Positions 14,809-56,978 of a stretch of 64,000 nucleotides of DNA are shown here, one piece after another. Position 1 is the stretch's first letter, and every line of letters begins with the position of its first letter. Under the pieces are notes generated by a model that did not search any database, had not been told where the DNA came from, and saw only the letters and a program-made list of their open reading frames with translations. A program made the position numbers and the translations under genes. The DNA is from Chthonomonadaceae bacterium (lineage in GTDB: Bacteria > Armatimonadota > Chthonomonadetes > Chthonomonadales > Chthonomonadaceae): the NCBI GenBank assembly GCA_965246825.1, contig OZ251990.1, positions 3,894,541 to 3,958,540 on the forward strand, written 5' to 3'.

Positions 14809-14827
14809 CGGTTTTTTTCGCTTTCAA

Positions 14828-16072: not shown

Positions 16073-16114
16073 GACAATCCTCCTGACCAGGAACAGAATT
16101 CCAAATTCAATCGT

Positions 16115-34159: not shown

Positions 34160-35422
34160 CTAGCTGATGCTCATCGTCGAGTACACGGCGTTGAAGACCT
34201 CTTTGGGCGTGGTCAGTCCCTCGGCGATTTTCTGGTAGCCGTCTTCAAGCATGGTTCGCATCTGCTGCTTTGTGCGGACATAGGCGGTGATGTCCTGCAT
34301 CGTGCTTTTTTTGGCGATGAGTTCGCGAAATTCCGGCGTGGAGATAATCACCTCAAACAGTCCGAGCCGGCCCTTGAACCCCGTCTGGCGGCAGGTTTCG
34401 CAGCCGCGCCCGTGCATGAATTTCACCTGCGTACAGCGAGCTGGGTCCAAGCCGATTTCGATGAGTTCGTCGGGGTTGGGCGTATAGGCTTCCTTGCAGT
34501 TTTTGCAAATGGTACGCACGAGCCGCTGCGCCATGATCGCCTGCACCGTCGAGGCAATGAGATAGGGCTCGGCTCCCATGTCCTGCATTCGTCCGACCGT
34601 TTCGAGCGCGTTGTTGGTGTGCAGCGACGAGAGCACGAGGTGACCGGTGAGGCTGGCTTGAATTCCGATGCCCAGGGACTCCGCATCCCGCATTTCCCCG
34701 ACGAGCATCACGTCCGGGTCCTGCCGTAAAAACGAACGCATCACTCGCGGAAAGTTCATTTTTTCGGTGACCTGAACCTGGGTGATATGATCCTCGAACT
34801 CATATTCGATGGGGTCTTCGACGGTGACGATGTTGCGTTTTTCCCGATCCAGTTTGTTGAGCGAGGCGTAGAGTGTGGAGGTTTTGCCGCTTCCGGTAGG
34901 GCCGGTCACAAGGGCCAGTCCATAGGAGGACTGAACCGCGTTTTCCCACTTTTTGAGTACATCCGGGGGCATTCCGAGGCGATCCAGTTCCACTTTCGCG
35001 CCGACGGGATCGAGCAGACGCATCACGATTTTTTCCCCGTTCAGCATCGGCAGGCACGACATACGGGCGGAAAGGCGGCGGGTGCTGTACTGCATATCGA
35101 GGCGTCCGTCCTGCGGTTCGCGCCGTTCATCAATGTGCATTCCGGCGGCGAGTTTAAGGCGGGCAATGATATTGGGGGTGATTTCAGGGGAAATCTGCCC
35201 CACGTCGTGCATCACGCCGTCAATGCGGTAGCGCACGAGCATCCGGGTGCGTTCCGGCTGAAGGTGAATATCGGAGGCGGAGAGGTCGAGGGCTTTGCGT
35301 AAAATATAATCGGTATCGGAAACCGCCTGAGTGAGTTCGCCGCCCATTTCGCGCTGAACGCCGCCGTCTCGCATGATAAGCTTGAACTGGGTGAGTGCGC
35401 CCGATTTTCCTACCTGAGTCAT
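34160..35422 (-). CDS. GspE/PilB-family secretion ATPase (short form lacking N1 domain)
   Basis: Walker A LVTGPTGSGKTSTLYASL, plus Asp box, Walker B, His box and the tetracysteine motif CKNC...CETC. AGGAGAA ribosome-binding site before ATG 35422. Confidence 0.8.
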   Translation of the reverse strand: MTQVGKSGALTQFKLIMRDGGVQREMGGELTQAVSDTDYILRKALDLSASDIHLQPERTRMLVRYRIDGVMHDVGQISPEITPNIIARLKLAAGMHIDERREPQDGRLDMQYSTRRLSARMSCLPMLNGEKIVMRLLDPVGAKVELDRLGMPPDVLKKWENAVQSSYGLALVTGPTGSGKTSTLYASLNKLDREKRNIVTVEDPIEYEFEDHITQVQVTEKMNFPRVMRSFLRQDPDVMLVGEMRDAESLGIGIQASLTGHLVLSSLHTNNALETVGRMQDMGAEPYLIASTVQAIMAQRLVRTICKNCKEAYTPNPDELIEIGLDPARCTQVKFMHGRGCETCRQTGFKGRLGLFEVIISTPEFRELIAKKSTMQDITAYVRTKQQMRTMLEDGYQKIAEGLTTPKEVFNAVYSTMSIS

Positions 35423-35778
35423 CTGTTTCGGTTCTCCTGGGGCTTTGGCGAAGGGGCCGCCAAATTCGGTGATCTTTGGTGATGACGGGCTATTCGGCAG
35501 CAAACGTCCGTTTTCCTGTTTGATCCGTTTCCGTCTTTCCCGGATTCGCCGTGACAGGTTTGACTTTCGCTTCGGCGGGCGGGCAGCGGTTCCTTATTTT
35601 GCAGAGAGCACGAGAGAAGATTGCAGCGGAGTTAGAGGCGAGGTAAGAAAGGCTTTGAGGAAAGAATTTCGCTTTTTCGCTGTGTCGGGGGCTTGTTGAG
35701 GCATTGCTGAGCGGCATACCCGCTTTCCGAAGAGTCGGTGTTGAGGGTATACTCCCCTAGAGATCATTTCCGCCTTTT

Positions 35779-36228
35779 ATGTTTTGGGGACAGGAGACCA
35801 AAGCCATCAAGCCCGACCCGCCGACTTTCGACACTTCCCTCCCCCCTGAAACCCGCCTTACCGTTTTCGCTGGGGCAGTCTTTGCCTTTTGTGCGGTCGC
35901 ATTCGGAGCGTTTGGGTCTCACGCCCTCAAAGCCGCCTTGGACGCCAACGGAACCGCCCAAACCTTTCAGACCGGGGCGCACTATCATCTCACCCACGCG
36001 CTCGCGCTTTTGCTTGTGGCCGTTCTGCCTCTTCCGGCTCGGTTTCAACGCCGTCTGCGGCTTCTATTCTCGATTGGAATTCTCATTTTCTCCGGCTCTT
36101 TGTACCTGCTGGCGATAACGAATGTGCGCTGGCTCGGAGCCATTACCCCCCTTGGCGGCCTCTGTTTTCTTTCCGGCTGGCTTACCCTGGCCTATGCCTC
36201 GCTTCGTGCGCCCGCTTCCGTGAGCTGA
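35779..36228 (+). CDS. DUF423 (YgdD/TMEM256-like) membrane protein
   Basis: FGAFGSHALK...GAHYHLTHAL with four TM helices. The 3' end overlaps the convergent regulator gene by 37 nt. Confidence 0.6.
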   Translation: MFWGQETKAIKPDPPTFDTSLPPETRLTVFAGAVFAFCAVAFGAFGSHALKAALDANGTAQTFQTGAHYHLTHALALLLVAVLPLPARFQRRLRLLFSIGILIFSGSLYLLAITNVRWLGAITPLGGLCFLSGWLTLAYASLRAPASVS

Positions 36229-39218
36229 GCCGATTCTGCTGCCCCAACCACCCGTAGGGCATAGGCGACGGCTTGCGGCTCGTCCATTCGTACCCCGGTT
36301 TCCCAGGCGCACCGATAATCTGCCTCTCCAATCTGTTCGCGCAGTTCTTCGAGGTACGCTCTCTGAGCAGGGCGTTCTGCGGGCGGTGTCAAATAGCCGG
36401 TCGCTTCTCGCAGGGTAGCGACGGCCCCCTCAATGGTCACGGCTTCCGCCACCTGCCCCCGTTTCCAGGCCAAATTCGCAAGGTCTTTCAGGGAAAGAGC
36501 GACTGCCCAGAAAACCTGTGCGCCATGAAATCGCTGCAGCGTTTCGCGGACATACTCAAGTGCATCTTCGTCCCGTCCCCGTTGACGTGCCAATTGTCCC
36601 AACGCGCCCAGCGAATAGGCAGACGCGATCTCGTTTCCGTTTTTGTGCCGCAGGCTCAGGGCACGCTCGAAGAAACCCTGGGCCGCACCAAAGTTTTCTT
36701 CACGCATCTCCACGTTGCCCAGGCTGTGACAGGACGCGGCAATTCCCAGCTCATCCTCCAAGGCTTCACGAATGTCGAGGCTTTGCGTGTAGAACTCGCG
36801 GGCAAGCGAAAAATGCTGCTCATAAAAGGCCGCATTGCCCAGCCCTTGCAGAGCCGAAGCCTGCCCTTTCCATCCGCAGCCCTCCTGCGAAATCCGCAGG
36901 GCTTGCCGGTAGTACACTTCGGCTGCCGGGTAATCGGCGCGAAGCTGCGCCAGCACACCCGCCCCCTGAAAGGCTCTGGCCCTTTCCTCGCTCAATCCCT
37001 GTGCTTCCGGGAGGGCCAAAACGGTTTTCAGCCAGTCGTCCCCCTCCCGCAGGCCGCCGTTCAATTCCCAGAACCGACAAAGATTGGCCGCCAGTTTCAG
37101 GGCCAGCGGCGGGTCGTTTCGGACACTCCACCGCAGGGCTTCACGCAGATTGTCCTCGTCCCTTTTCAGGCAGGCGAGGTGGCAGCGTTCCTGCGGCGTA
37201 TGATACGCTTCCTTCGCTTTTTCGGCGAGTGTACTGAAAAATCGGGCGTGAAGTTTTCCGGCGTTTTCGGTTAGTCCCGATTCTTCGAGTTTTTCAAGCC
37301 CGAACTCCCGAAGCGGCTCTAGCATCCGCATTCGCTCCTCGCCTTCGGCCTCTGGAGTTTGGAGGGAGTGCGCCGCCTGAAAAATTAGAGAACGCTCTTG
37401 TAACTCTTCGATCAGAAAAGGAGTTTCTTCGCCCAGCACCGCTTCTGCCGCCTCCAGCGTCCAGCCGCCGCGAAAAACGCTCAGCTTCACAAAAGCAGCC
37501 CGCAGTTCGTCGGACAACTGCTCGCAGCTCCATTCGCAGGCGGCCCGCAGGCTCTGCTGACGGGCAGGCAGGTCTTTGCGGCGGCTCACCAGAATTCTCA
37601 GTTGATCTTCCAGTTTTTCCAGCATCCGGGCCGGGGGAAGGGTTTTAATCCAGGCCGCCGCCATCTCAATTGCCAGCGGCATCCCCTCCAGCCGACGGCA
37701 AAGTGAGATGACTGCTTCCGTATTGTGAGAAGTCAGGAGAAAGTCGGCTTTTGCTTTTTGGGCCCGATCCACATAGAGGGCAACCGAGGCACAGGCGGAG
37801 GCCGGGTCGAGGCCGACGTTTTCCGGCAGCGCAAGCGGCGGAAGCACAAAGACCTGTTCGCCCTCCAGACGAAGAGTCTGCCGCGAAGTCACCAGACATT
37901 TCAAGCCGGGGGCTGATTCCAAAAGCCGCCGAATCACCGACCGCCCCCCAGCCCCAAGCGGGTTTTCGGCTTTGGTCTCTTCGTCGGAAAGCAGGTGCTC
38001 CATGTTGTCCAGAACGAGCAGAGACGGAGCCTCCTGCAATTTTGTAAAAACGGCTTGAAGCGGATCGGCCTGTGAAGCCGAAAGATGAAGAGCATTGCGC
38101 AGCAGCATCGGAATCAGGGAGGGAGCCGGAATGTCCGCCAGCGAAACAAACCAGACCCGCCCGCTGAACTGCGGCGAAATGCGGCGGGCGACCTCCAGCG
38201 CAAGGCGGGTTTTACCGGCTCCTCCTGCTCCCAGAATCGTCACGAGCCGAGTCGAGCCGTCGAGAAGAAAATCTTCGAGTTTTTTTTGTTCCTCCTCTCG
38301 CCCGAAAAATTTTGCCAGCGGCTTCGGCAGCGAGGCCGCATCATCCGGGGAAGCCGCAGAGAAGGGAAGCAGAGAGGACGGAGCCGAGGGGGAGGGAAGC
38401 GTGGCCGCAGGGGTCTTTTTCGTTAAGACGGAGGGACGCGCCTGAACCTCAGCGCAACGCAGCACATTGGCGTTACTTTGGCGAACGGCCTCCTTGAGGG
38501 AAACCGTTTCCGGGTGCGGCGAAGCCCCGAACTCGGAGCACAGGGCCGTCTCCAGCCGTCCATAGGCTTTGAGCGCGGCCTCTCGAAGTCCCTGCATCGC
38601 GCTCGCCTTCATCAACAGGCGGCAGGCTCGCTCATCACAGGGGTCGCTTTCCAGCAAAGCCTCGGCGTCCTGCTGCGCTTCCTGAAGGCGTTCTTCTTCC
38701 AAAAGCAGTTCGGCCCGCTCAAGCAGGGCAGCCGTTCTCTGTGCAGCTGTGCGCGTCTGCGCTCCAATCGCCCACTCGTCATAAAACGACGGCAGCAAGG
38801 GAGAGGCGGAAAGTGCAAGGGCGATGGAAAGCGGGGTGAGGCGGGCGTGTAGGTCGGTTTCACGGCGGGCTGCACGAAGCGCGGCCTCGAACTCGTGAAC
38901 GTCCACCTGAACCGAGGCTGCGTTGAGTGAAACCGACTGGCGATCTGCCCTAAGCACCGATCCGGCAGAAGTGCCTGCCGGTTCGAGAACCCGACGCAAA
39001 AAACTGAGATGGGTACTGAGATTGTTGCGGCCTGCGTCGGCTTCCATCTCCGGCCAGAGCAAATCCATGAGCTGCTCTCGCGAAGGCGTCTGCCCTAGAG
39101 AAAGGGCAAGGTAGGCCAGCAGGTGTCTTGCTTTCTGAGAGGGAAAGCGGGTCACCGCTTCGCCGAACCGAACCAGCCTCAATCCGCCGAAAAGCTCAAT
39201 GCGACAATCGCTTTCCAT
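36192..39218 (-). CDS. STAND-class regulator: OmpR/PhoB-type winged-helix + BTAD domain, NB-ARC-like P-loop NTPase, and TPR repeats (AfsR/SARP-like)
   Basis: N-terminal ELFGGLRLVRFGEAVTRFPSQKARHLLAYLAL (SARP-type wHTH), P-loop LVTILGAGGAGKTRLALEVA, an LVTSRQTLRLEGE (hhhhTSR) motif, and C-terminal TPRs. GGAGGAA ribosome-binding site before ATG 39218. Confidence 0.75.
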   Translation of the reverse strand: MESDCRIELFGGLRLVRFGEAVTRFPSQKARHLLAYLALSLGQTPSREQLMDLLWPEMEADAGRNNLSTHLSFLRRVLEPAGTSAGSVLRADRQSVSLNAASVQVDVHEFEAALRAARRETDLHARLTPLSIALALSASPLLPSFYDEWAIGAQTRTAAQRTAALLERAELLLEEERLQEAQQDAEALLESDPCDERACRLLMKASAMQGLREAALKAYGRLETALCSEFGASPHPETVSLKEAVRQSNANVLRCAEVQARPSVLTKKTPAATLPSPSAPSSLLPFSAASPDDAASLPKPLAKFFGREEEQKKLEDFLLDGSTRLVTILGAGGAGKTRLALEVARRISPQFSGRVWFVSLADIPAPSLIPMLLRNALHLSASQADPLQAVFTKLQEAPSLLVLDNMEHLLSDEETKAENPLGAGGRSVIRRLLESAPGLKCLVTSRQTLRLEGEQVFVLPPLALPENVGLDPASACASVALYVDRAQKAKADFLLTSHNTEAVISLCRRLEGMPLAIEMAAAWIKTLPPARMLEKLEDQLRILVSRRKDLPARQQSLRAACEWSCEQLSDELRAAFVKLSVFRGGWTLEAAEAVLGEETPFLIEELQERSLIFQAAHSLQTPEAEGEERMRMLEPLREFGLEKLEESGLTENAGKLHARFFSTLAEKAKEAYHTPQERCHLACLKRDEDNLREALRWSVRNDPPLALKLAANLCRFWELNGGLREGDDWLKTVLALPEAQGLSEERARAFQGAGVLAQLRADYPAAEVYYRQALRISQEGCGWKGQASALQGLGNAAFYEQHFSLAREFYTQSLDIREALEDELGIAASCHSLGNVEMREENFGAAQGFFERALSLRHKNGNEIASAYSLGALGQLARQRGRDEDALEYVRETLQRFHGAQVFWAVALSLKDLANLAWKRGQVAEAVTIEGAVATLREATGYLTPPAERPAQRAYLEELREQIGEADYRCAWETGVRMDEPQAVAYALRVVGAAESAQLTEAGARSEA

Positions 39219-39527
39219 GCCGCTTCCTCCACCCGCGTTTTTAATCCATCGCTCCCTGTTGCAAATTCCTGAACGGTCTCTTTATTTTACTCTGTTTTCT
39301 TTTTTTTGAGAGTGTGAATTTTTTAGGAGTTGCTTAGGAGTCGTGTGATATTCTTCTCCAGAAGCGATCTCATTGCACCGATTGCAAAGGCAGGAAGCCC
39401 CCCAGGCTTTTGCCGAGCGATGCACGCTCGTGACGCTTTCCGTTCGGGCAGAACCCAGCGTTGTCTTCACGAATTTGGCTGCTTCCGAACCTGTTCCACT
39501 CTCTTTTTTCACTCCGTAGGAGGAACT

Positions 39528-42485
39528 ATGTACCGTCCCCTTCGAAATGCGCTTTGGATGATGACGCTGTTGGTCCTCATCCTCACCCGGAATCCTGCCT
39601 GCGGGCAAACTCTTTCGATTCCCGCTCCCCAGCTCAACAAAATCATCTATGTTGCCAATGCGCTCTCGCACATTGACACCGACAAAACCCGCGAGAAAGC
39701 GGCGCAGGCGTTCTATGTTGTACAGCAGTACACTCAGTATCCCAATTCCGACCCGCGATTGGTGCTGAAATTGCTGAATCGCGCTCAGGACACCTTCGAC
39801 AAAAAGTACCGCTCGAACGCCAATTACAATGCTTATCGCTACCGCATGGTCTCTTATGAGGTTGTGGCGAATATGCTGAGTATTTTGGCGGCACAGCCGG
39901 GAAACGAAGTGCCGATTTCGCTGGTGAAAGAAGCCACCAACTTCGCCACCCTCGATGCAAACGGGCTGGGCGATCCGCAGACTCAGTATCTGGAAGCCAG
40001 CGCAATCGTCGGCAACAGCCGCATTGCAGGACGCTTTCAGAAATATCTGAACACCCAAATCGAAAACCTTTACGACCTGGGCCTCAGCAATCCCCGCGCT
40101 CAGGTGGTAGCCGATGTCTTTTTCGGGTCTTCGTTCAATGCCTACGTCGGCAACACCGCCTTGATGACCCTGAACGCCAACCCCGCGTTTCGGGACAGCG
40201 CGAACTTCCGCCCCCTCTTCCTTAAAATTGATCCGATTACCGGAGCCTTGAATGCCACCCGGGCCCAGATCAATCAAATCATCGCGGATTACCGGGCGCG
40301 AATGGCACAGGTCTTCACCGATAACATCGCCGTTCTCTCCACCTTGACCGCCCACCAGAAAACGGACTATTCGAGCTACCCTGCTTCCGCCCAGGCCGTC
40401 AGCGATCAGGCGGCAGTGGACGCCCGCAAAGCCCCCAATCTCGCCGCGCTTCAATCGGCCCCCGCGTTCAGTTATGTCACTCCGTTCACCATCGAACCCG
40501 ATCCGAAACACCAGGCTTACGAGCAGGCACGCGCTGTGCTTGATTTGGCCTCTAAAGTTGCCACTTTCGCTGCCGATGTGACGGAGGCGGCCTCTCCTGC
40601 GGGCTTGCTCGAAAGCGAAGCCCCCGCCGTTCGCGCCGTCGCTTCAGGAATTGATGTGGCGGGAGCCGCGATGGATGTGGCGGAAGCCTTCGGTGCATTC
40701 GGCAAATCCAATGATGAAGTCATCATGGACGGCATCAATCAGCTCAGCAGTCAGATGGCATCTTTTCAAAACCAGATCAATGGCCGCCTCGACATCATTG
40801 ACCAGAATATCGCCAATCTTTACAGCGCGGTCAACACGCAGTTTGCCGGAATTCGCGATACACTGGCGAACATCTCCAGCACCCTCGCCCAGCTCCAAAG
40901 CCAGGTCATCGGGATGCAGAGCAGTCTGTTCAACCTTCAATCCAGTCTGGATCGCCTGACGCAGAATATCTATGAGTTTGCAAGCCAAGCGGTACGTCAG
41001 CCGCTTAAAAACGACCTCGCAACGATTGATACCTATGTCCGCAACTCGCTCACGATCACGCAGTCGGACTACACCGGGCTTTACAGCCGCACGAAACAGT
41101 ACGCCACCGGAACCGTTTTCGATGCCGCCGAGATTGGAACGGCCCTGAACGGAAGGGCCTACGACGATCTGAGCGTCAAAAACGAACTCAACAGCCCCAA
41201 TCCCGAATGGAACCTGAACTACGCGCTGGAGTTTGCCCGCCGCCGCTTCGGGCCAGGACGCACCGGAACCGATGCCGCCAATTTCAGTGCTGTAACGGCC
41301 CTCGGCCCCTCCGGTCAATTGATTGCCAACCCACGCGGCTGGGAAATGAGCGTGTCGGGCATGATCCGTCTCGCCTCTCAATATCCCGATCTCTATGCCG
41401 CGACCACACTCACGGATACGCCCAACTCCAATCAGGGCTTTTTCGGAACCCAGCTGGTCGGTGCTCAGATTCAAGGGGCGGCGGCAGGAACGACTCTGCA
41501 AACCGCAGCGGGCGGGGCCACCGTGCTCAGTCCCCTTTTTCCAAACCTGCTGAAACACCAGAGCCTTCAGGCACAGCGGCTGATTACCGCACTCCAGGCT
41601 CTTGCGGCGGAAACGCCCACCGACCTCACCAGCGTGGTCGCCCGGGTGAGAACGCAGTGGACAACCACCAGTCCCACACCGAACGGCATCAATCTGCAAA
41701 CCGCGATCAAAGCCCTCAGCGGCAGCCGATCCCTGCTCAACACCTTTGTGACCTTCGGACTTTCCCGCACCCTCTCCAGCAACGATCTGCTCAGTTCCCT
41801 GCTCTACAGCCCGCAGCGGCTGCCCGACGATGAACTGGTTAAATCGCTTTACGACGGCTGGGCTTCAGGACAGCCTGATCCGCTGACCATTTTCCAAAGC
41901 TCTCAGTCAACGCGGCAGGCGAACTTCACCGCCTTGCTGAACACGATTCTGACTGGGCTTTTCGCTCAAACCGCAGGACGACCGGCAGCGGGCGAAACGG
42001 TTCCGTCGGTGGAGATTATGCTGCGCCGCCTCGATCCCTTCACCAATGTGAAGGTCACGATGACGGTCACCCCCGGTTCGGGTCAATTTATTGCGGGCGA
42101 CCCCCTCCTGTTCACCTTCCGCTCCTCGGATGCCGTCTACCCGGTTTCTCTGCTTCCCGATCCCGTCAGCGGCAAATACAGTGTTTCGGTTCCTCCGGGC
42201 TACTACAGCGTTGCCATCAAAGCCAGCCGCTTTCTGCAGCGGGTAATCGCCGATGTCAATACGCTCACCGGGCCGAAAGCAATTTCCGCCAGCCTGCTGG
42301 TCGGCGATGTTTTCAACGATAACCGCATTGACAATCGGGATCTGATCGCCCTCCGCAATGCCCTCGGCTCCAGCGCGAACAGTCCGAATTGGAACCCGCT
42401 CGCCGACCTCAACGGAGACGGCGTAGTGAACATGACCGACTTCAATCTGCTGCGCACCAACTACGGGCGCGTCGGCGACCCGTAA
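39528..42485 (+). CDS. large secreted protein (985 aa) with coiled-coil region and C-terminal dockerin-like domain
   Basis: Strong AGGAGGAA ribosome-binding site. Signal peptide MYRPLRNALWMMTLLVLILTRNPACGQ. C-terminus DNRDLIALRNALGS...DLNGDGVVNMTDFNLLRTNYG (paired dockerin-type Ca-binding repeats). Confidence 0.55.
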   Translation: MYRPLRNALWMMTLLVLILTRNPACGQTLSIPAPQLNKIIYVANALSHIDTDKTREKAAQAFYVVQQYTQYPNSDPRLVLKLLNRAQDTFDKKYRSNANYNAYRYRMVSYEVVANMLSILAAQPGNEVPISLVKEATNFATLDANGLGDPQTQYLEASAIVGNSRIAGRFQKYLNTQIENLYDLGLSNPRAQVVADVFFGSSFNAYVGNTALMTLNANPAFRDSANFRPLFLKIDPITGALNATRAQINQIIADYRARMAQVFTDNIAVLSTLTAHQKTDYSSYPASAQAVSDQAAVDARKAPNLAALQSAPAFSYVTPFTIEPDPKHQAYEQARAVLDLASKVATFAADVTEAASPAGLLESEAPAVRAVASGIDVAGAAMDVAEAFGAFGKSNDEVIMDGINQLSSQMASFQNQINGRLDIIDQNIANLYSAVNTQFAGIRDTLANISSTLAQLQSQVIGMQSSLFNLQSSLDRLTQNIYEFASQAVRQPLKNDLATIDTYVRNSLTITQSDYTGLYSRTKQYATGTVFDAAEIGTALNGRAYDDLSVKNELNSPNPEWNLNYALEFARRRFGPGRTGTDAANFSAVTALGPSGQLIANPRGWEMSVSGMIRLASQYPDLYAATTLTDTPNSNQGFFGTQLVGAQIQGAAAGTTLQTAAGGATVLSPLFPNLLKHQSLQAQRLITALQALAAETPTDLTSVVARVRTQWTTTSPTPNGINLQTAIKALSGSRSLLNTFVTFGLSRTLSSNDLLSSLLYSPQRLPDDELVKSLYDGWASGQPDPLTIFQSSQSTRQANFTALLNTILTGLFAQTAGRPAAGETVPSVEIMLRRLDPFTNVKVTMTVTPGSGQFIAGDPLLFTFRSSDAVYPVSLLPDPVSGKYSVSVPPGYYSVAIKASRFLQRVIADVNTLTGPKAISASLLVGDVFNDNRIDNRDLIALRNALGSSANSPNWNPLADLNGDGVVNMTDFNLLRTNYGRVGDP

Positions 42486-42591
42486 CCGTTTCTCTTTGTT
42501 CTTGACTTTTTTCTTTCGCGGCTCCGGTTTTTTGCCCAGGCAGCCGATCCGTCCAAAGGAGAAAAGTCCAACCCTGAAAGCGAATTTTGAA

Positions 42592-43221
42592 ATGCTGACA
42601 AGAAAAATTCATCTCATCGGCGGGAGTGCGCTGGCACTACTCGGCATGGGAATCGGAGCGAACGCGCAGGTGCTGCAATTCACCCCGCCCCGTGCCTCCG
42701 ACAACACAAATCACCTGATTACCTTCAGTTTGACGGTGGACAGGGGGGCTGCGCCTGCAGTCGCTTGGGGAACCGACCTTACCCTGGCCGACCCTTCCAC
42801 CCTGCAATTCGTTTCCGATTTCGGCGGAGCGGGAAAGCCGTTTCTTTCCACACAGCCGTTTTTCGATCTCGACCTCAGCAGTGCCTTCACCCCTGGCAGT
42901 GCAACGCTGAATCTGAACTTTCTCAATTCCGTCTCCGGGCTGACGCTGGGGGGAACCGGCTCGGTGGTTTTAGGCCAGTTTCAGGTGCGCGTCTTAAAAG
43001 ACCCCGGTCTTTCCGGTTCGGTGATTTCGATTGCCGACCTCGCCACGCCTCCGCTCGGCTCCGCGCTGGAAGACGCCGACGGCAACAATCTGCTCGTCGG
43101 CGTCTCCAGCGGGCTGGTGACCCAGAAGTTCCCCTCCCCGGAACCGGAGGGGTGGCTTGCGATGGCCAGTGGTTCCGCGATGTCCCTGTACCTGCTCCGC
43201 CGCAAGCGAAGCCGGGCCTGA
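42592..43221 (+). CDS. PEP-CTERM sorting-domain protein
   Basis: Signal peptide, then C-terminal ...FPSPEPEGWLAMASGSAMSLYLLRRKRSRA (PEP motif, TM helix, basic tail). Confidence 0.6.
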   Translation: MLTRKIHLIGGSALALLGMGIGANAQVLQFTPPRASDNTNHLITFSLTVDRGAAPAVAWGTDLTLADPSTLQFVSDFGGAGKPFLSTQPFFDLDLSSAFTPGSATLNLNFLNSVSGLTLGGTGSVVLGQFQVRVLKDPGLSGSVISIADLATPPLGSALEDADGNNLLVGVSSGLVTQKFPSPEPEGWLAMASGSAMSLYLLRRKRSRA

Positions 43222-43298
43222 TCGGTTTTTGGGATGCCTTTCAAGTGCTATTTCTGTGTTTTGTCTGAGTGATGTGTTTCAGTAAAAGGAGTTCTATT

Positions 43299-45920
43299 GT
43301 GCAGCGCAAACTTTCTCTTCTCGCCCCTCTGATGGCTTTGGCCGCCTCCGGCGTCGCCGCTCAAACCGTGGCCCCGGTTCCTTCTCTGATGAATTTTCAG
43401 GGACGTCTCGCCAAGCCCGACGGCACTCCCGTTGCCGACGGGGTTTACAGCATTCGCTTTTCTCTTTGGGATGCCGCGACGGGTGGAAACGAAAAGTGGA
43501 ACCAGACCGTTTCCCCCGTCAATGTTCGTAACGGCACGTTCGCGACCCTGCTCAATGTGGGCAGCGGGCCTTCCGACCTCTTTGCCGACAACCGCTGGCT
43601 GGAAATAAAAATCGGCACAAATGCCCCGCTGACAAACCGGCAGCAGCTTGTGTCGGTGGCGTTTGCCCTTAAAGCGAACACGGTTCCCGACAATTCAATT
43701 ACCGCTGCCAAAATCGCCGACGGTACGATCACTGCCACCAAACTTTCCACCGGCCTGACGGTTACACCCGGCGGGGCGGCGGGCGGTGACCTCACCGGCA
43801 TCTATCCCAACCCCACCCTTGCCACGCTGGGCACTTCCCTCTACAAAGTCTCCGGTACGCTGATGTCGGCGACCAATACGAGCCTGACGGTGGATCAATC
43901 GCAGACAAACGCGCCGCTGCTCATCACCGATTATGGCTGGCAGTCTTTTACGCCCGCCGCAAACAGCAAACTGACGAGCCTCGACATCTGGATCGGAACC
44001 TCCACCGGAGTCGCCCATGGAGCCACTCTGACGATTTACGCCGGAGAGGGAAATACCGGAACGGTGCTTCAGTCGCAAACGGTGAACGTTCAGCCGACAA
44101 TCGGTTTTCAGCATTTCGATCTCAGCACCTCGGTCGCTTTGGCGGCGGGTCTGAAATACACTTACTCGATTGGCTCTTATGCCCCGCTCCGTCTGGGCTA
44201 CTCCACCGGCAATCCCTATCCCAATGGGAAAGCCGATGCTGGGGACACGCTGGACTACGCCTTCCGAACCTACATTCAGGCCTCTGCCAGTTCCCAGCTG
44301 ACGGCACTGGCTCCGTTTCTTTTCTCGAACACCACGCAGGCTTCCGAGCGTTTCCGATTGAGCGGGCAGGAGTATTATCAGGCATCGAACACCTCGGCAG
44401 ACGGCATCTCGTTTATTCTGGGCTTAAACCGCGCCAACAACCGTCAGCTGTGGATTATGGACAGTGCCCGCCTGACCCCCAATATGGTCAACTCTTCGCT
44501 GCAGCTCTCTCCGGGCGGAGACCTCTATCCCTCGGCGATCAATGCGATGTCCTCGGACGGAAACACCCCTCAAACGCTCACGCTTCAGCCCGGCGGCGGC
44601 AGTCTCGGAATTGGAACCTACTCGCCGACCACCAAACTGGACGTGAACGGCAACCTCTCCCTGACGGACACCGGAAGCATCGCCATCGCCTTTAAGGGCA
44701 ACGGCGAAATCAGCGCGGATACGGGCATCGGGCATCCCGGTGACGGGCAACTCACCTTCTGGGCCGATGCAGGGGAGCAGATGCGCTTGAAGGGAGGGAA
44801 CTTCGGCATTGGCACGAACAACCCGGAAAAACGGCTTCATGTGGCGGGCGATGTTTTGCTGAACAACACCAATATCCTTTATGGAAAAAACTCTGCCGGA
44901 GCGAACGAAGGGGTGCTCTGGCCCCGCTGGAGCGACAACGGAACTTACCTCAACTTTGGAACAGGCGGCTTTTTCATCCGCTCCAACGACAGCATCCCTC
45001 GGATGTTCGTCACCAATTCGGGAAACGTTGGAATTGGAACAACTAGTCCGGGCGCGAAATTCGATGTGCGCGGCGGCAGTGCCGTCGTCACCAATGCTTC
45101 CGGGGCGAATCGCGTTATCAGCGGGCTGAATACCGGGGTAGACGCGGGCTATTTCCAGATCATCAACGGCAATAACAATCTAATTGCCGGTTTCGGTGGA
45201 GACAACAACGGCGGCAGTCTGTATGTACGGGACGGGGCGAATGCGACCAAATTTTCTGTTGACGCCAGCGGGTATGTCAATGCAGCAAATGGAGGCAGCT
45301 TCGGTAATGTCACCTTGCACAATGCGGGCAACTACAGCGCGATCCGCGCTTACAACAGCTCTCCCATCGTGAACGGAGTGAGCTACCCAACCATTTACGC
45401 CCAAAACTACAGCGGCGGACTGGCACTGTTTGCCGTTGGAGCGATTGGTTCCAGCATCAAAAACTTCATCATTGACCACCCGCTCGATCCGGGAAACAAA
45501 TACCTCGTTCATGCGAGCGTAGAAAGCGACAAGGCGCAAAATATGTACAATGGAACCGTTAAACTTGACGCAGAAGGCAAAGCCTGGGTGAAACTCCCCG
45601 ATTGGTTTGAGGCTCTCAACAAAGATTTTACCTATCAGCTGACCTGCATCGGCGGCTATGCTCAGGTTTATATCGCGCACGAAGTAAAGGACAATCAATT
45701 CCAGATTGCGGGCGGAGGGCCGAACATGAAGGTTTCCTGGCAGGTGACCGGGGTTCGCCACGACGCCTACATCAATGCTTACCCGATGAGTGTGGTGCAG
45801 GACAAAGGCGCGGATCGCGGCAAATATCTGAACCCTGTCCTGTTCGGGCAGCCCGCCTCCAAAGGCGGCGTCATGCAGGCCCCCGCAGCCCCGATCACCC
45901 CCGCACAGGAAAATAAATAG
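43299..45920 (+). CDS. large secreted protein (873 aa), fibre/adhesin-like, function unknown
   Basis: Start set to GTG 43299, 7 nt after an AAAGGAG ribosome-binding site, which gives signal peptide KLSLLAPLMALAASGVAAQ. Gly/Asn/Thr-rich beta-type repeats and a distinct ~150-aa C-terminal domain (IIDHPLDPGNKYLVHASVESD...). Confidence 0.5.
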   Translation: MQRKLSLLAPLMALAASGVAAQTVAPVPSLMNFQGRLAKPDGTPVADGVYSIRFSLWDAATGGNEKWNQTVSPVNVRNGTFATLLNVGSGPSDLFADNRWLEIKIGTNAPLTNRQQLVSVAFALKANTVPDNSITAAKIADGTITATKLSTGLTVTPGGAAGGDLTGIYPNPTLATLGTSLYKVSGTLMSATNTSLTVDQSQTNAPLLITDYGWQSFTPAANSKLTSLDIWIGTSTGVAHGATLTIYAGEGNTGTVLQSQTVNVQPTIGFQHFDLSTSVALAAGLKYTYSIGSYAPLRLGYSTGNPYPNGKADAGDTLDYAFRTYIQASASSQLTALAPFLFSNTTQASERFRLSGQEYYQASNTSADGISFILGLNRANNRQLWIMDSARLTPNMVNSSLQLSPGGDLYPSAINAMSSDGNTPQTLTLQPGGGSLGIGTYSPTTKLDVNGNLSLTDTGSIAIAFKGNGEISADTGIGHPGDGQLTFWADAGEQMRLKGGNFGIGTNNPEKRLHVAGDVLLNNTNILYGKNSAGANEGVLWPRWSDNGTYLNFGTGGFFIRSNDSIPRMFVTNSGNVGIGTTSPGAKFDVRGGSAVVTNASGANRVISGLNTGVDAGYFQIINGNNNLIAGFGGDNNGGSLYVRDGANATKFSVDASGYVNAANGGSFGNVTLHNAGNYSAIRAYNSSPIVNGVSYPTIYAQNYSGGLALFAVGAIGSSIKNFIIDHPLDPGNKYLVHASVESDKAQNMYNGTVKLDAEGKAWVKLPDWFEALNKDFTYQLTCIGGYAQVYIAHEVKDNQFQIAGGGPNMKVSWQVTGVRHDAYINAYPMSVVQDKGADRGKYLNPVLFGQPASKGGVMQAPAAPITPAQENK

Positions 45921-45928
45921 GGCAGCGC

Positions 45929-45977
45929 AGTCAGCGGTTTTCTCCTCACGAAAACCGCTGACTCTGCACATTTTTTT
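45929..45977 (+). terminator. terminator-like hairpin after the 873-aa secreted protein gene
   Basis: AGTCAGCGGTTTT-ctcctcacg-AAAACCGCTGACT, with a T7 run 7 nt downstream. Confidence 0.4.
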
Positions 45978-45999
45978 CAGATTGTGTCTGTGTTCCCTC

Positions 46000-46059
46000 C
46001 TTGGGCAAAGAAACACCGCAAACGCAGGCTCCTTTTCTCGCGGTGTTTCTTTGCCCAAG
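46000..46059. repeat. 20-bp perfect inverted repeat (CTTGGGCAAAGAAACACCGC / GCGGTGTTTCTTTGCCCAAG)
   Basis: The arms are separated by a 20-nt loop. It ends ~20 nt before the start of the dockerin-protein gene. Confidence 0.6.
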
Positions 46060-46078
46060 ACCCTCCAGGAGATTTGCC

Positions 46079-46831
46079 ATGTTTCGACATTCTCATTTTT
46101 CTTTGCGCGTTCTCAGCCCGATTGCCCTCAGTCTCCCCGTGCTGGGAGGGCTTACCCTTTCGCCCGCTGCGTTCGCGCAGGCTCCCGGCATTGCGTTTTA
46201 CGAGTTTTCGTCCTGCGCCCTCGACTTCGCTCCCTCAGGCACGCCGCCCCTCTCCCTCCAAGCCACCCTCGGCCAAACCTTGGTCACCGTTGACCCGCCC
46301 ACCCCTCCCGACCAGACCCGCGCCGCCCTCGGCTTTTGGGAAACCGGCGTTCCCTTTCTCTACCAAACCCAGGTTGACCTCGAAGGCTTTGTCGGCAGAA
46401 CCGCCGCTCCCCTCCGCTCCCTTCCCTTCACCTTTCAGCTTCTCGACGCTTCCGGCACACTGATCGACCAGATCGAGGCCTTCCCCGCTTCCACCAACGC
46501 CCAAAACTCCGCCAACTTCGCCGTCTCCTCCTGGGCCAACCCCGCTTTTGTCGCTTCCCTCACCGCCAAAGGCGACCGCTGGCTGAGGCAGAAAAAGGCG
46601 AGCACCCTTTCAGCCGCTGGCTCTCCGGGAGCGGCGTTCGCGCTTTTGGCGGGCGACGCGAACAACAACAATGTCGTGGATGTAGACGACCTCACCCTTT
46701 TGCTCAACCTCTACAACACGGCGGCGGGGGACGGTCTTTATCTTGCCGCCGCCGACTTCACCGGAAACGGAACGGTGGATGTGGACGACCTCACCCTTTT
46801 GCTCCACAACTACAACACCAACGGAAACTAA
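46079..46831 (+). CDS. secreted protein with C-terminal dockerin repeats
   Basis: AGGAG ribosome-binding site, then ATG 46079. Signal peptide, then GDANNNNVVDVDDLTLLLNLYN and ADFTGNGTVDVDDLTLLLHNYN (dockerin type-I-like duplicated repeats). Confidence 0.55.
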   Translation: MFRHSHFSLRVLSPIALSLPVLGGLTLSPAAFAQAPGIAFYEFSSCALDFAPSGTPPLSLQATLGQTLVTVDPPTPPDQTRAALGFWETGVPFLYQTQVDLEGFVGRTAAPLRSLPFTFQLLDASGTLIDQIEAFPASTNAQNSANFAVSSWANPAFVASLTAKGDRWLRQKKASTLSAAGSPGAAFALLAGDANNNNVVDVDDLTLLLNLYNTAAGDGLYLAAADFTGNGTVDVDDLTLLLHNYNTNGN

Positions 46832-50077: not shown

Positions 50078-51250
50078 TTAGTATAGCACGGAGGGGAAAC
50101 GGAATTCGCTTCGATCCAGGGTCGGTTTCTCCTCCGCTGCCCACTGCGCCAGAGCCTCGCCGATGGCGGCGGAGTGCTTGAACCCGTGCCCCGAACAGGG
50201 TGACGCCACAAAAACTTGTGGAAATTCCGGCAGGGCATCCAGTAGAAAGCGTGCATCGGGGGCAGCGGTATAAAGGCAGACGCGGGTCGCAGCACATTCG
50301 GTGCTCAAGGCGGGAAAGAAGGGCGCGATATTCTGACGGTGCATTGCCTCGATCTCTGCCTCCGAAACGCTGCGATCCACCGTTTCGGGGGTGGTGGTTT
50401 CGAGATAGGTTTCGGAGGCCGCCTTGACCAGATCGCCCGTTTCATTGAGAGCCGGAAAACCGTAAATCCCGGAGCCGCCGCGATCCTGCTCCCAGATGAA
50501 TACGGGAAAGCGTTCCGGGGAAAAAAGCGCGGGGTTTTCTCGAACCCGAAACCAGTACATCACCTGCCGGTAAACCGAAAGGGAAGCCCGCAGGGAAGGC
50601 AGCAGCTGCGAAACCCAGGCCCCGGCTCCAACGATCACCTTTTCCGCCCGATAAACCTCTCGTTCCGTTCGGATCGTGACGCCCCTCCCCGACGGTTGGG
50701 GAAGAATTTCCAGCACCTGCTCGTTGTAAGCAAGAACGGCTCCCAGCGATTTTGCCCGCTCCAGCTGCGCTTCCACACACGCTTCCGGGCGCACAAACCC
50801 GGCTCCAGGTTCATAGTAGCCGCGTTCGTCCCCGGAAAGCGAGAAGGCAGGAAATCGCGCATTGATGTCGGCGGCGGTCAGCCGTTCGTGCGGAATATGA
50901 AACGCTTCTGCCGTGCGGAGGGTTTGCTCGAAAAAGTTGGGCTTGCCATGAAGCCCTGCTGTTTTCCCGCCCGCAGCAAGAATCAGACCGCCGTTCTGCG
51001 TAAGAAGTGTGCGCCCGGTTTCTGCTTCGAGTTCGCGCCAGAGTTCGTGGGAGCGCAGCACAAACGGAACGTAGGCTGCCCCCTCGCCAATGGCCTGCCG
51101 CGTGACCCGGCTTTCGCCCTGCGTGGAACCGAGTGAATGCGGCGGCGTATACTGATCGAGTCCGATGACGCGCCCTCCCCGCCGGGCCATGTGATAGACG
51201 GCGGCAGCCCCCATCGCTCCCAGCCCCACCACAACGCAGTCGGCGTTCAT
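50078..51250 (-). CDS. FAD-dependent oxidoreductase (DAO/sarcosine-oxidase-like family)
   Basis: N-terminal VVVGLGAMGAAAVYHMARRGGRVIGLDQ (GxGxxG Rossmann) and a C-terminal SGHGFK motif. Overlaps the upstream CHAT gene by 4 nt. Confidence 0.75.
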   Translation of the reverse strand: MNADCVVVGLGAMGAAAVYHMARRGGRVIGLDQYTPPHSLGSTQGESRVTRQAIGEGAAYVPFVLRSHELWRELEAETGRTLLTQNGGLILAAGGKTAGLHGKPNFFEQTLRTAEAFHIPHERLTAADINARFPAFSLSGDERGYYEPGAGFVRPEACVEAQLERAKSLGAVLAYNEQVLEILPQPSGRGVTIRTEREVYRAEKVIVGAGAWVSQLLPSLRASLSVYRQVMYWFRVRENPALFSPERFPVFIWEQDRGGSGIYGFPALNETGDLVKAASETYLETTTPETVDRSVSEAEIEAMHRQNIAPFFPALSTECAATRVCLYTAAPDARFLLDALPEFPQVFVASPCSGHGFKHSAAIGEALAQWAAEEKPTLDRSEFRFPSVLY

Positions 51251-54156
51251 CGCGGGTCTCCGAGCAAAATAAAGGGAGACCAGTAATAAGGGTGGCTGTG
51301 TTTACCGTCCTCTTTCAGATAGAGGGCGGCATTTCGCAGAGCTTCACTTTTTCTCTGTTTCTTCAGAATGAGATTTCGATAGAATGAAGTCATCAAAGCG
51401 GCGGTGGAGGCGTCATCTACCGACCATTGACTGACCACCTGGGTGGGGCAGCCCGCCACAAACAAAGCCCAGGTCAGACCGATGATCCCCTCCCCCTCTT
51501 TGTTTTCCCCGCGTGCCGTATTGCAGGCGGAGAGAACCACCATTTCGGCGTTGAGGTGAAGTCCGGAAATCTCTCTCGCCGTAAGAAAGCCGTCCTCCTG
51601 AGCGTCTTCCGGCTGTGCCAGCACCACCGACGACAACAGCGGTGCGGCGTCGTTGACAAACCCATGCGTGGCAAAATGCACGAATCGGTAATCGCCCATG
51701 CTTTGTTTGACTGTGGTTTCCTGCGCCTTTTTCCCCGTCAGAACGAGGGACGCGGGAAAAAGATCCTGAAGTTCTTTGGCTTCGCGCTGAGTTCCAGGCA
51801 GGGCGGAGATTGCTCCTCCGCGATCTGAGGCAGCAATGAGACGCGCCGGGGTGTCCAGGGGCCGAGCGGGAGAGTCGAGAGGGCGGGAAGGCAGATCGAG
51901 AGGGCGCTGCGCTGAAACACCCTCTGGATCGCCGAAGCGGGCGGTAGTTCCAAAATCGGGGTCGGCACATACCAGCAGGTTTTTGGCGGCTTTGCGGCGG
52001 GCTTTGGAGGTCAGCATGAACTGCGCCCCCGTTGCAGAGTGAGCATAAGCGACCTCAAACCGATTGAGCAGACAGATTTTTTTCGTTCGGTTGGGCAGCA
52101 GGACGGCAAAGGGAACCTCCCACAAAACCCCGTCCGGGCAGATCAGCAGCCGCATTTTGCCTTTCAATTCCGGCTCCACAGGCTTGATGAGAACCCGGTA
52201 AAGTGCCTCGGCCTCGCCCTGAAACGCATTTTTCGGATTGGTGCAGTCCTTGCGAAGAGCACGGCAGCGTTTTTCCAGATCGGAGTGCTGGATTTTGACC
52301 GAGTAGGTTTTCAGGTGCGGCCTGCCGTTGTGCCGGGTGACTACAAACACGGCAAAATAATCTTCTGCCAGCGTTACATATTCCAGCAGGGCCGTTTTGT
52401 CTGGAAGCCACTTTCCAACCTCGTCGAGCGAGGCCGTTTTTGCAATCCGTTTCTGAACCAATTCCGGGTGACGGGCATAGAGAGTTTCGGTCAGCGTTTG
52501 GAGTTGATCTTCCGTTTTTTTGAGCTGCCCCTGAAGCGCAGCAAACCGCTTTTTGGCTCCCACCTCGTTTTCCACGCCTTCTTTCACCATCCGGGCGTTG
52601 AGTGCGTCGGCTTTGCGGCGCAGTTCCTGGTCTTGAAGCCGCTCCTGCGGGGTCAGGGAAGAATCGAGGTTCACTCTGCCGGAGGTAAGTAAATCGAGCA
52701 GCGAACGCGCCTTTGTTTTTTGTGCCAGCTCAAAAGCCTGCGTTTCCTTTTTCAATTCGATCAAGAGGTGCAAATAAGTATAGTAAGCGTCAATGTTGAG
52801 GGCGAGGCTGGAAGTTTTCGCTTCGGAATAGCCTCCGAGATTGGTGCGGTACTGTTCTTGCAGTGCCACAGCCTGCTGAGCATACACAAGTGCCGCTGCC
52901 GGACGCAGGCGAAACCGCTCCGTTTGCGCGGCGTTCTCCAGAGCCTTGGCTTGAATTCGGATTTCGTTGATACGGCGGGTCAGGGCAATGCATTGATTGA
53001 AATAAAGGAGGGCCTGCCGATGGTCTTTTTTTGCGGAATAAGTGAGACCAATTGAGTTGAGTTCGACTGCAGTCTCGGTATTTTTGTGAAGCTCCCGCTG
53101 GATCGCCAGGGCACGAAAAAGATAGGTCAAAGACTTCGCGTAATCTTTGGCGTCGCGGAACTCGCCGCCTAAATTCGCGAGGGAGGCCGCTTCGCCGACC
53201 CGATCCTTTGTTTCCAAAAAGATGGACAGAGATTTCTCGTAAAACTCCACCGCCTTCTTCGAGTTCTTCAACTCGGTGTTCAGTGTTCCGAGGGAAAGAT
53301 AGGTGCGGGCAATCCAGGATTTTTCGCCGAGTTCCAGGCGGATTTTAAGGGCTTGCTGATAATATTCCATCGCCTGAGCGTATTCGCCCAGGTCTTCATA
53401 AAGAACACCGATATTGTTGAGGGTTCCTGCCTGATCCTGCTTGCTGCCGGTTTCCCCGAAAATTGCTGCAGCGGACTGAAAGTACTCCAACCCTTTGCGA
53501 ACATTACCGAGGGTGTTCCAGAGCGTTCCGGCACGAAGATAGATCGTCCCCTTAATCCGCTTGTTGTCAACTTTGGGGAAAATCGAGACTACCTCTTCAT
53601 AGGTTGCTGCCGCTTGTGTTAGGGCTTCCCGCTGAAGTTGCATCAGTCCGAGCTGCTCCAGCGCATAGAGAAAATTGAGGGGATTGTTTTGCTGCCGAAA
53701 AAGCGATACGGCTTCCGCATAGTCTGCCTCCGCTTTTGCCGTCCGGCCCAATTCGAGTTCCATCAGCCCGCTTTTGTACAGGAAAAGCGCGATGCCTTCC
53801 GGGTAGGGGATTTTACGGGAGAGGGCCAGTGCCTGATCGTAGAGGTGCAGTGATTCTTCCCAGTGTTTGCGAAGGTAGGCGAGGTCGCCCAGCCCGCGAG
53901 TCGCTTCGGCCTCTCCCACCGGGTCGTTCAGTTCGCGGGCTTGGGTTAAGGCTTGCTGATCGAGTTTTTCCATGTCCTCCAGTTTCCCGGCTCTTCCGGC
54001 GTCGGCTCCCGCTTTGAGCAGAGTGCGGATTTCGGGTCGCATTTCTTTTTTCGGCGGAATTTGAGCCGAAATCGAAGCCGGGAAGGAAGAGCCGAGAAAA
54101 GCGAAACACCCGGTGATCGCCGAGCACAACAAAGACTGAGGGCGGCAGTGAGGCAT
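51247..54156 (-). CDS. TPR-repeat protein with C-terminal CHAT (caspase-like) protease domain; N-terminal signal peptide
   Basis: Signal peptide MPHCRPQSLLCSAITGCFAFLGSSFPASISAQ, many TPRs, and a C-terminal FVHFATHG...VVLSACNT (His/Cys dyad of CHAT). AGGAG ribosome-binding site before ATG 54156. Confidence 0.75.
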   Translation of the reverse strand: MPHCRPQSLLCSAITGCFAFLGSSFPASISAQIPPKKEMRPEIRTLLKAGADAGRAGKLEDMEKLDQQALTQARELNDPVGEAEATRGLGDLAYLRKHWEESLHLYDQALALSRKIPYPEGIALFLYKSGLMELELGRTAKAEADYAEAVSLFRQQNNPLNFLYALEQLGLMQLQREALTQAAATYEEVVSIFPKVDNKRIKGTIYLRAGTLWNTLGNVRKGLEYFQSAAAIFGETGSKQDQAGTLNNIGVLYEDLGEYAQAMEYYQQALKIRLELGEKSWIARTYLSLGTLNTELKNSKKAVEFYEKSLSIFLETKDRVGEAASLANLGGEFRDAKDYAKSLTYLFRALAIQRELHKNTETAVELNSIGLTYSAKKDHRQALLYFNQCIALTRRINEIRIQAKALENAAQTERFRLRPAAALVYAQQAVALQEQYRTNLGGYSEAKTSSLALNIDAYYTYLHLLIELKKETQAFELAQKTKARSLLDLLTSGRVNLDSSLTPQERLQDQELRRKADALNARMVKEGVENEVGAKKRFAALQGQLKKTEDQLQTLTETLYARHPELVQKRIAKTASLDEVGKWLPDKTALLEYVTLAEDYFAVFVVTRHNGRPHLKTYSVKIQHSDLEKRCRALRKDCTNPKNAFQGEAEALYRVLIKPVEPELKGKMRLLICPDGVLWEVPFAVLLPNRTKKICLLNRFEVAYAHSATGAQFMLTSKARRKAAKNLLVCADPDFGTTARFGDPEGVSAQRPLDLPSRPLDSPARPLDTPARLIAASDRGGAISALPGTQREAKELQDLFPASLVLTGKKAQETTVKQSMGDYRFVHFATHGFVNDAAPLLSSVVLAQPEDAQEDGFLTAREISGLHLNAEMVVLSACNTARGENKEGEGIIGLTWALFVAGCPTQVVSQWSVDDASTAALMTSFYRNLILKKQRKSEALRNAALYLKEDGKHSHPYYWSPFILLGDPR

Positions 54157-56972: not shown

Positions 56973-56978
56973 TCCTTT

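Follow-up and report, generated by a model that had tools for sequence, protein, structure and literature searches.

What do the dockerin-tailed proteins of this locus dock onto? The question is raised by an island of four consecutive plus-strand genes in a 64,000-nucleotide (nt) stretch of DNA from a Chthonomonadaceae bacterium (contig OZ251990.1, positions 3,894,541 to 3,958,540), hereafter the window, in which coordinates are counted unless another contig is named. The genes encode proteins A (39528–42485; 985 amino acids, aa), B (42592–43221; 209 aa), C (43299–45920; 873 aa), and D (46079–46831; 250 aa). A preliminary description of the same DNA had grouped them as one surface system of secreted proteins, in which A and D end in dockerin-like repeats and B in a PEP-CTERM signal, with no cohesin in the window. 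This last claim fails because B is itself cohesin-like, by profile as well as by fold. B is a divergent member of the cohesin superfamily, and the dockerin proteins and B, an exosortase-type substrate, probably belong together as partners in a single anchoring pair. Direct reading of the sequence confirmed the four reading frames and revealed, in each of A, B, C, and D, a hydrophobic N-terminal segment ending in AxA/AQ, as anticipated for secreted proteins.

Protein B consists of a signal peptide, a divergent cohesin module, and a PEP-CTERM sorting signal; the module occupies residues 27–178 (42670–43125; like all features of A–D, on the plus strand) and has the form of a cohesin-like β-sandwich. 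The family is small: 5.8 billion proteins yielded about 33 clusters, whose members are 164–278 aa long throughout and have no Pfam domain on record. Pfam Cohesin (PF00963) matches neither B nor its 10 close homologs, even at E values up to 10, and searches of the sequences in the Protein Data Bank (PDB) with B and with the B-family profile found nothing. Since the Pfam model misses B itself, the protein is to be regarded as a divergent relative and not as a Pfam-level cohesin. An exhaustive profile search with a 34-sequence alignment of B against 1.84 billion representative sequences retrieved 57 proteins at E ≤1e-3; among the 46 that lie outside the close B family, 13 match Pfam Cohesin and 26 match PEP-CTERM. 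P0176 and P0174 share the architecture and length of B and score 32.5 and 25.8 bits, respectively, against Cohesin, above the gathering threshold of 24.1.

Additional profiles were built from B bodies from which the signal peptide and the PEP-CTERM tail had been removed, so that the sorting signal cannot drive the link to cohesins. In its first iteration, the body-only profile was significant for the intermediates P0165, P0166, and P0168; with these intermediates included, P0174 and P0176 were matched end to end with E values of 2.8e-11 and 6.5e-11 for the whole library. Direct alignment of the B bodies with the Cohesin-positive group in hhalign gave a probability of 98.7% and an E value of 1.9e-16 over 144 columns, and B is thus homologous at the profile level to bona fide cohesin modules. 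The best fold matches of the predicted structure of B are likewise cohesins, and the model adopts the nine-stranded jelly roll of the cohesin fold. It could be argued that B is a cohesin-like jelly roll that receives no dockerin, namely a carbohydrate-binding or structural PEP-CTERM matrix protein, and that the dockerin-like tails are only Ca-binding stabilizers; the structure model of B is of low confidence, Pfam Cohesin does not recognize B itself, and β-sandwich carbohydrate-binding modules (CBMs) occur among the low-probability Foldseek matches. Beside the profile and fold matches described above, we consider this explanation unlikely. Tandem stretches matching the N-terminal half of the B profile, three to nine per protein, were also seen in P0171, P0178, P0206, and P0209 (786–1684 aa), which might be multi-cohesin scaffoldin-like proteins or merely contain Ig/PKD-like repeats.

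The C-terminus of B (residues 183–209; 43138–43218; PEPEGWLAMASGSAMSLYLLRRKRSRA) contains the PEP motif, a hydrophobic helix of ~20 residues, and an RR(K/R) basic cluster at the extreme end. P183, E184, P185, W188, R203, and R204 are invariant in 11 homologs and are retained in three further copies of the gene cassette. The preliminary description had called this a textbook PEP-CTERM. The invariant motif bears out the assignment, but the corresponding hidden Markov model (HMM), TIGR02595, scores B by itself at 11.8, below its cutoff of 16; the Pfam model of the signal (PF07589) matches nine of 11 family members, with a best E value of 1.2e-4, and gives no report for B itself. PEP-CTERM proteins are usually linked in genomes to exopolysaccharide (EPS) loci and an exosortase.

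The other half of the proposed pair is clearest in A, a large secreted protein with a conserved body of no assigned fold and a tail resembling the dyad of X module and dockerin (X-Doc) of scaffoldins. A dockerin was taken as two segments of ~22 residues, each composed of a 12-residue loop with D/N at positions 1, 5, 9, and 12 followed by a helix. Residues 926–980 of A (42303–42467) contain two such loop–helix repeats, with the EF-hand-like Ca-binding loops DVFNDNRIDNRD (from residue 927) and DLNGDGVVNMTD (from residue 960) placed 33 residues apart, and Pfam Dockerin_1 (PF00404) matches residues 926–976 with 34.8 bits (gathering cutoff, 22.9), so that the duplicated dockerin repeats attributed to A hold up in the HMM check. 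The dockerin is preceded by a β-rich module (residues ~840–925; 42045–42302) that resembles X modules and CarboxypepD_reg domains. In a phmmer search with residues 891–982, the best match was the X module plus type II dockerin of CipA from C. thermocellum (2b59_B, E 4e-6). With a profile of seven A orthologs, the five best PDB matches were all scaffoldin X-Doc dyads, aligned over ~115 positions: 2b59_B (E 9.9e-14), followed by 3kcp_A, 5g5d_B, 4wi0_B, and 4u3s_B. Within the X module, the alignment is confined to the C-terminal half. In cellulosomes, a tail of X module and dockerin plugs the scaffoldin into the cohesins of cell-anchored proteins.

Upstream of this tail, A is conserved over its whole length among its orthologs and, apart from weak coiled-coil-type matches around residues 400–530, has no Pfam or PDB relative. 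The protein had been introduced as a coiled-coil protein, which is borne out in part by a heptad-periodic segment at residues ~400–480 (40725–40967), with the heptad score at its maximum over residues 401–480, but the matches to known coiled coils are sub-threshold (Baculo_PEP_C, 26.8 bits; reovirus sigma-1 coiled coil, E 0.02), and from these weak sequence signals A may at most be suggested to form a helical stalk.

Protein D is a secreted protein with a β-rich body and a tail of the same type (residues 160–250; 46556–46828), which comprises the final strand of an X-like module and a divergent dockerin. Two intact 12-residue Ca loops, D193..D204 (DANNNNVVDVDD) and D226..D237 (DFTGNGTVDVDD), are each followed by a near-identical DDLTLLL helix, with LTLLL after each loop. 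The tail is homologous to that of A (BLASTP E 9e-11, 32% identity over 91 aa), and dockerins in the PDB match it at E ~0.025. The duplicated repeats claimed for D are therefore present in their loops and in their kinship with A, but the HMM check missed them, as Dockerin_1 gives 20.4 bits, just under its gathering threshold of 22.9, and NCBIfam dockerin_GC gives 16.9 against a cutoff of 29. The body of D does not resemble a cohesin (hhalign probability 0.3%), and searches assigned it to no family.

Cellulosomes are typified by cohesin and dockerin modules, and the tail of A resembles CipA X-Doc, which together might suggest a minimal cellulosome-like enzyme complex for polysaccharide degradation. 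The cargo, however, is a fiber and a coiled-coil protein, and neither Pfam nor NCBIfam detects a glycoside hydrolase, another catalytic domain, or a CBM in A–D. Such a complex is accordingly very improbable, and the earlier observation of dockerins lacking a cellulosome context beside a PEP-CTERM protein is sustained.

The pairing of A with B is further supported by the recurrence of the cassette. The order A–B–C is found in the window and in eight further distinct contigs that show A upstream of B, and B adjoins a C-type fiber in at least 14 related contigs, which vindicates the grouping of these genes as one system. The loci listed with this order are the window, JGI 3300047160, L001/L002 (from a metagenome-assembled genome of an uncultured Chthonomonadaceae, Armatimonadota), L003, L005, L006, L007, L009, L011, and L012; L003 is a short contig in which both neighbors of B are cut by the contig ends. 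JGI 3300078620 begins just upstream of B, and only B–C is visible there. Wherever the neighborhood of B can be read, an A-type dockerin protein of 1,095–1,586 aa lies upstream and a C-type fiber downstream. A metagenome scan with an 11-sequence B alignment yielded only three loci. Several further matches of B and of C come from contigs of equal length, which suggests that they are located together. Because A–B–C recurs in the same order across contigs, the evidence supports a functional unit, conserved in Armatimonadota-like bacteria, and not a chance neighborhood of the four genes.

Orthologs of A with 30–45% identity lie upstream of B in L001, L005, L006, L007, L009, L011, and L012 (for example, L005 4988–9037, L007 3329–8089, L011 5808–9896, and L012 5336–9976). 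Their loop–helix repeats range from two in the window to ~12 in L007 and L012, i.e., from one to ~6 dockerins, as predicted by avidity-based anchoring, and the orthologs of L007, L011, and L012 contain an extra insert of ~100 aa before the tail. D belongs to a subset of three cassettes, those of the window, JGI 3300047160, and L011. The L011 ortholog is 57% identical over residues 36–183 and retains the duplicated DVDDLT repeats, and the 252-aa protein in the D position of JGI 3300047160 has a recorded Dockerin_1 match at E ≤1e-5. L011 is the orthologous locus, with a regulator 50% identical in the same position and a flanking FGGY kinase 76% identical. Its fiber gene (L011 10945–13864) is called as two open reading frames (ORFs) of 575 and 415 aa, which match C residues 19–326 and 542–872 and indicate a frameshift, an assembly error, or a truly split fiber. 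In L005, the cassette is followed immediately downstream by a phage-type integrase and a PDDEXK nuclease (13722–16738), and in L011 a transposase fragment lies upstream of it; both hint that the cassette is able to occupy mobile or variable regions.

Other secreted proteins with dockerin tails occur within 10 kb of the cassettes in related contigs, namely a pro-kumamolisin/S8 peptidase, an RCC1-repeat protein, and an esterase/S9 peptidase (on the JGI 3300047160 contig, at L005 17608–18888, and at L012 3455–4828). Their tails are of the same CarboxypepD_reg-like plus dockerin type as those of the cassette, which suggests that these organisms use dockerin tails as a general tag. These neighbors bear on a different assignment of partners, in which the domains are correctly identified and B anchors other dockerin-tagged proteins while the cohesins for A and D lie at other loci, and co-regulation of surface proteins accounts for the clustering. 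The existence of distant PEP-CTERM cohesins outside the B family would also fit such an arrangement. However, the B family is tiny (the ~33 clusters noted above) and, where neighbors are visible, its members always stand directly between A and C; moreover, no other cohesin is present in any cassette. We regard this assignment as doubtful, and B remains, in our preferred interpretation, the receptor of the A and D tails.

What, then, would the anchored proteins carry? Protein C had been described as a Gly/Asn-rich fiber with a distinct C-terminal domain, and its composition (18% Gly and 12% Asn over residues 421–700) and separate tip agree with this; its standing as an unclassifiable fiber requires correction, given an N-domain related to MAT_N, a shaft resembling that of Bd2133, and a tip similar to receptor-binding domains. 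C is a mosaic fiber of the MAT-like kind, in which mapping of the 120 listed relatives distinguished four modules. The N-terminal domain (residues ~23–153; 43365–43757), a distant relative of the Bdellovibrio MAT N-domain, shares 55–74% identity with the N-terminal regions of ~90 of the 120 listed relatives, and the majority of these proteins terminate in Peptidase_S74. NCBIfam NF053851 (Bdello_MAT_N) scores C at 20.2 bits, against a cutoff of 60, and gives a sub-cutoff match in 45 of 46 proteins that share this domain (best E 2.8e-7); matches that are weak and yet nearly universal among the relatives point to distant homology and not to membership. The second module (residues ~160–345; 43776–44333), which is common to cassette-type fibers only, is DUF4082-like, with a sub-threshold Pfam score of 21.6 bits against a cutoff of 28.4. 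Similarity to the cassette-type fibers stops repeatedly at residues 325–345, beyond which the modules differ: the proximal 345 aa are conserved among cassette fibers, and the distal parts are swapped.

The distal part of C comprises a Gly/Asn-rich repeat shaft of the β-helix type (residues ~430–690; 44586–45368) and a conserved tip (residues ~720–855; 45456–45863; IIDHPLDPGNKYLVH...SWQVTGVRHD). The shaft matches the β-helix region of the Bdellovibrio MAT fiber Bd2133 (8ond_A, E 2.6e-5) and two PHROG tail-fiber families (E 5.5e-7 and 5.1e-6). The tip is a separate module with 29 invariant columns in 13 sequences and is shared with another subset of proteins; it is β-rich, is not of the S74 type, resembles receptor-binding domains of phages and pyocins, matches no Pfam family, and, as a profile, found nothing among PDB sequences. 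Among relatives of C the proximal part is shared, whereas the terminus is Peptidase_S74 in some and a C-type tip in others, the arrangement of a shaft with exchangeable tips.

The PHROG matches of the shaft, together with weak tblastn matches to cyanophage tail fibers that fall in the shaft region only, the resemblance of the tip to phage and pyocin domains, and the integrase in L005 raise the question of whether the island is what remains of a degraded prophage or tailocin, with C as its tail-fiber gene. Within the window, however, no phage structural, replication, or lysis genes surround the island, its flanks are chromosomal (an FGGY kinase, an HslU-like ATPase, and regulators), and signal-peptide-like segments are present on all four proteins, while the flanking kinase and regulator are conserved in L011. 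A search of 50,697 phage records returned no relatives of A, and a pattern search of the 2.9 million viral contigs of IMG/VR returned none of the C N-domain. A phage origin was rejected on the last two findings and on the weak, shaft-only nature of the cyanophage matches, and a phage remnant is highly improbable.

The C-type N-domain also begins five of the seven A orthologs (36% identity and E 5e-14 in L001), an observation to which we return below. The genes of the island are closely spaced, with gaps of 106 nt (A–B), 77 nt (B–C), and 158 nt (C–D) in which no convincing terminator was found, although scans for consensus promoters and terminators were uninformative. A is preceded by a GGAGG ribosome-binding site, and C starts with GTG behind an AAAGGAG ribosome-binding site.

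It was previously suggested that the neighboring BTAD-STAND regulator may control the island. This 1008-aa protein (36192–39218, minus strand), transcribed divergently from A, is a large SARP/AfsR-type regulator with Trans_reg_C (33.9 bits), BTAD (70.3), AAA_16/NOD (AAA_16, 34.7), and TPR (TPR_12, 49.8) domains, all above the Pfam cutoffs. The 309-nt spacer between the two genes contains a candidate SARP operator and promoter (39323–39354, plus strand), 188 nt upstream of the start codon of A: the sequence TTAGGAGttgcTTAGGAG at 39323–39340 is a direct repeat, TTAGGAG-ttgc-TTAGGAG, with an 11-nt period, and after a gap of 8 nt a −10-like TATTCT follows (39349–39354). In L011 (5605–5636), TTAGGAGtcgcTTAGGTG, 8 nt, and TATACT lie 186 nt upstream of the A ortholog, and the two loci, which are those with a BTAD regulator and available DNA, share the consensus TTAGGAG-N4-TTAGG(A/T)G. 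The repeat is unique in the 64-kb window, where ~0.1 chance matches are expected, and is absent from the other 11 loci examined. In SARP promoters, direct repeats have an 11-bp period and the 3′ repeat lies 8 bp from the −10 element (PMC10936776), and the candidate in both loci fits this geometry. A BTAD-type regulator stands divergently beside the cassette in three loci (the window, JGI 3300047160, and L011), whereas that of L005–L007 is an HTH_3/HTH_31 protein; JGI 3300047160 has both types. As far as can be judged from sequence, regulation of the island by the BTAD-STAND protein is plausible.

Taken together, we propose, with moderate confidence, that the four genes form a regulated operon whose products make up a surface fiber apparatus based on a non-cellulosomal cohesin–dockerin pair. 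B would be exported, and an exosortase whose gene lies in another part of the genome would process its PEP-CTERM signal, so that one cohesin module stays attached to the cell envelope or the exopolysaccharide layer. A is postulated to dock onto B in a Ca-dependent manner through its X-module-like and dockerin tail, and D, where present, may dock through the same kind of tail. C is envisaged as a trimeric MAT-like fiber whose variable distal tip would bind a target outside the cell, for example a surface glycan displayed by another cell or a substrate, the exchangeable tip setting target specificity, and would join the assembly by its conserved proximal half, i.e., the N-domain, which most A orthologs also possess, and the DUF4082-like module. 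The divergent AfsR-type regulator is speculated to activate the operon through the TTAGGAG direct repeats.

Several points weigh against this proposal. No exosortase was detected among 39 ORFs of the window scanned with Pfam, a scan that was not exhaustive, in line with the earlier statement that the window contains none. C has no dockerin, cohesin, or sorting signal, and its attachment is for that reason purely inferred. The A of the window itself lacks the MAT_N-like N-domain, which weakens a model that pairs A with C through it, and the coiled-coil evidence for A as a stalk is slight. The Dockerin_1 score of D falls just short, and D is absent from L005, L006, and L007. Finally, the dockerin-tailed enzymes near related loci imply that B may serve other cargo.

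A broader proposal can be formulated, which we consider possible although rather speculative: PEP-CTERM proteins with a single cohesin would serve non-Firmicute bacteria generally as an exosortase-dependent platform on which dockerin-tagged proteins are displayed, and the cassette would be the first identified surface socket for MAT-type fibers, with B holding the X-Doc tail of A and A holding C through the shared N-domain. The N-domain of MAT fibers presumably binds an unidentified surface element (PMC10769870), and such a platform, if real, would answer what the conserved N-domain of the Bdellovibrio fibers binds.

Elsewhere in the window, a DUF1559/N-terminal-methylation pseudopilin-like protein (11721–12749) and a T2SSE-family secretion ATPase (34160–35503) are encoded on the minus strand. 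Pseudopilin-like proteins with DUF1559 are characteristic of the genomes of Planctomycetota, Armatimonadota, and Verrucomicrobiota, which agrees with the taxon of the window. Two adjacent large STAND-type genes, also on the minus strand, encode a protein with TPR and CHAT protease domains (51247–54156) and a protein with adenylate/guanylate cyclase, NB-ARC, and TPR domains (54189–57029); the pair looks like a signaling or defense module with no relation to the island. An Rfam scan of the window returned a single tRNA and nothing else.

Cohesin–dockerin anchoring, PEP-CTERM sorting, MAT-like fibers, and SARP regulators are each known, and the searchable literature yielded no case of their combination and no mention of PEP-CTERM together with cohesin; the one paper in which both dockerin and exosortase occur, PMC5244752, handles them separately. 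The cassette thus represents a compact, conserved, and testable case that brings together a single cohesin with an exosortase-type anchor, two proteins with dockerin tails, a phage-like adhesive fiber, and one SARP-type regulator, and the observation of dockerins without cohesins becomes a specific binding hypothesis that is open to direct testing. If the pairing is true, it would connect the PEP-CTERM/exosortase system with cohesin–dockerin assembly, provide a lead on how MAT-like fibers are fixed to the cell, and offer a small orthogonal cohesin–dockerin pair from a little-studied phylum.

Compared with the C. thermocellum CipA X-Doc and its SdbA, OlpB, or Orf2p cohesins (PDB 2b59, 3kcp), the island likewise has a large, presumably extracellular protein ending in a putative β-module and a dockerin with duplicated Ca loops, and a cohesin, as judged by the best fold matches of B, on what would be a cell-anchored protein. 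It differs in that the anchor is of the PEP-CTERM (exosortase) type and not SLH repeats or a sortase signal, the host is an Armatimonadota-like bacterium instead of a Firmicute, enzymes and CBMs are missing from the cargo, B has diverged beyond the reach of Pfam Cohesin, and some A orthologs have up to ~6 tandem dockerins. Relative to PEP-CTERM/exosortase sorting (TIGR02595, PF07589; Haft et al.), B is typical in its PEP motif, hydrophobic helix, and terminal Arg/Lys cluster, while its passenger is a cohesin module.

Analogous to the Bdellovibrio MAT fibers (Caulton et al. 2024, PMC10769870; PDB 8ond), C has a signal peptide, a related N-domain, a Bd2133-like shaft, and exchangeable tips. However, its N-domain is far under the family cutoff (20.2 versus 60), its host is not a known predator, its tip is unlike all six solved MAT tips by sequence, with the PDB match confined to the shaft, and its gene lies inside a cohesin–dockerin operon, a setting not reported for Bdellovibrio. 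The regulator resembles the large SARP AfsR of S. coelicolor (PMC10936776) in its order of an OmpR-type DNA-binding domain, BTAD, NOD, and TPR, and the predicted target promoter agrees in the 11-bp period of its direct repeat and the 8 bp to a −10-like hexamer. In contrast to AfsR, the host lies outside the Actinobacteria, the predicted target is a surface-protein operon and not an antibiotic cluster, and the repeat is TTAGGAG and not the Streptomyces consensus. Cohesin and dockerin modules are widespread outside cellulosomes, where their function is described as unknown in PMC5244752, citing Peer et al. 2009. As with the non-cellulosomal modules of Archaeoglobus, C. perfringens, and ANME archaea, the context of the island is unrelated to cellulose degradation; unlike them, the island encodes both modules side by side in a conserved operon, together with a fiber cargo and a recognizable type of anchor.

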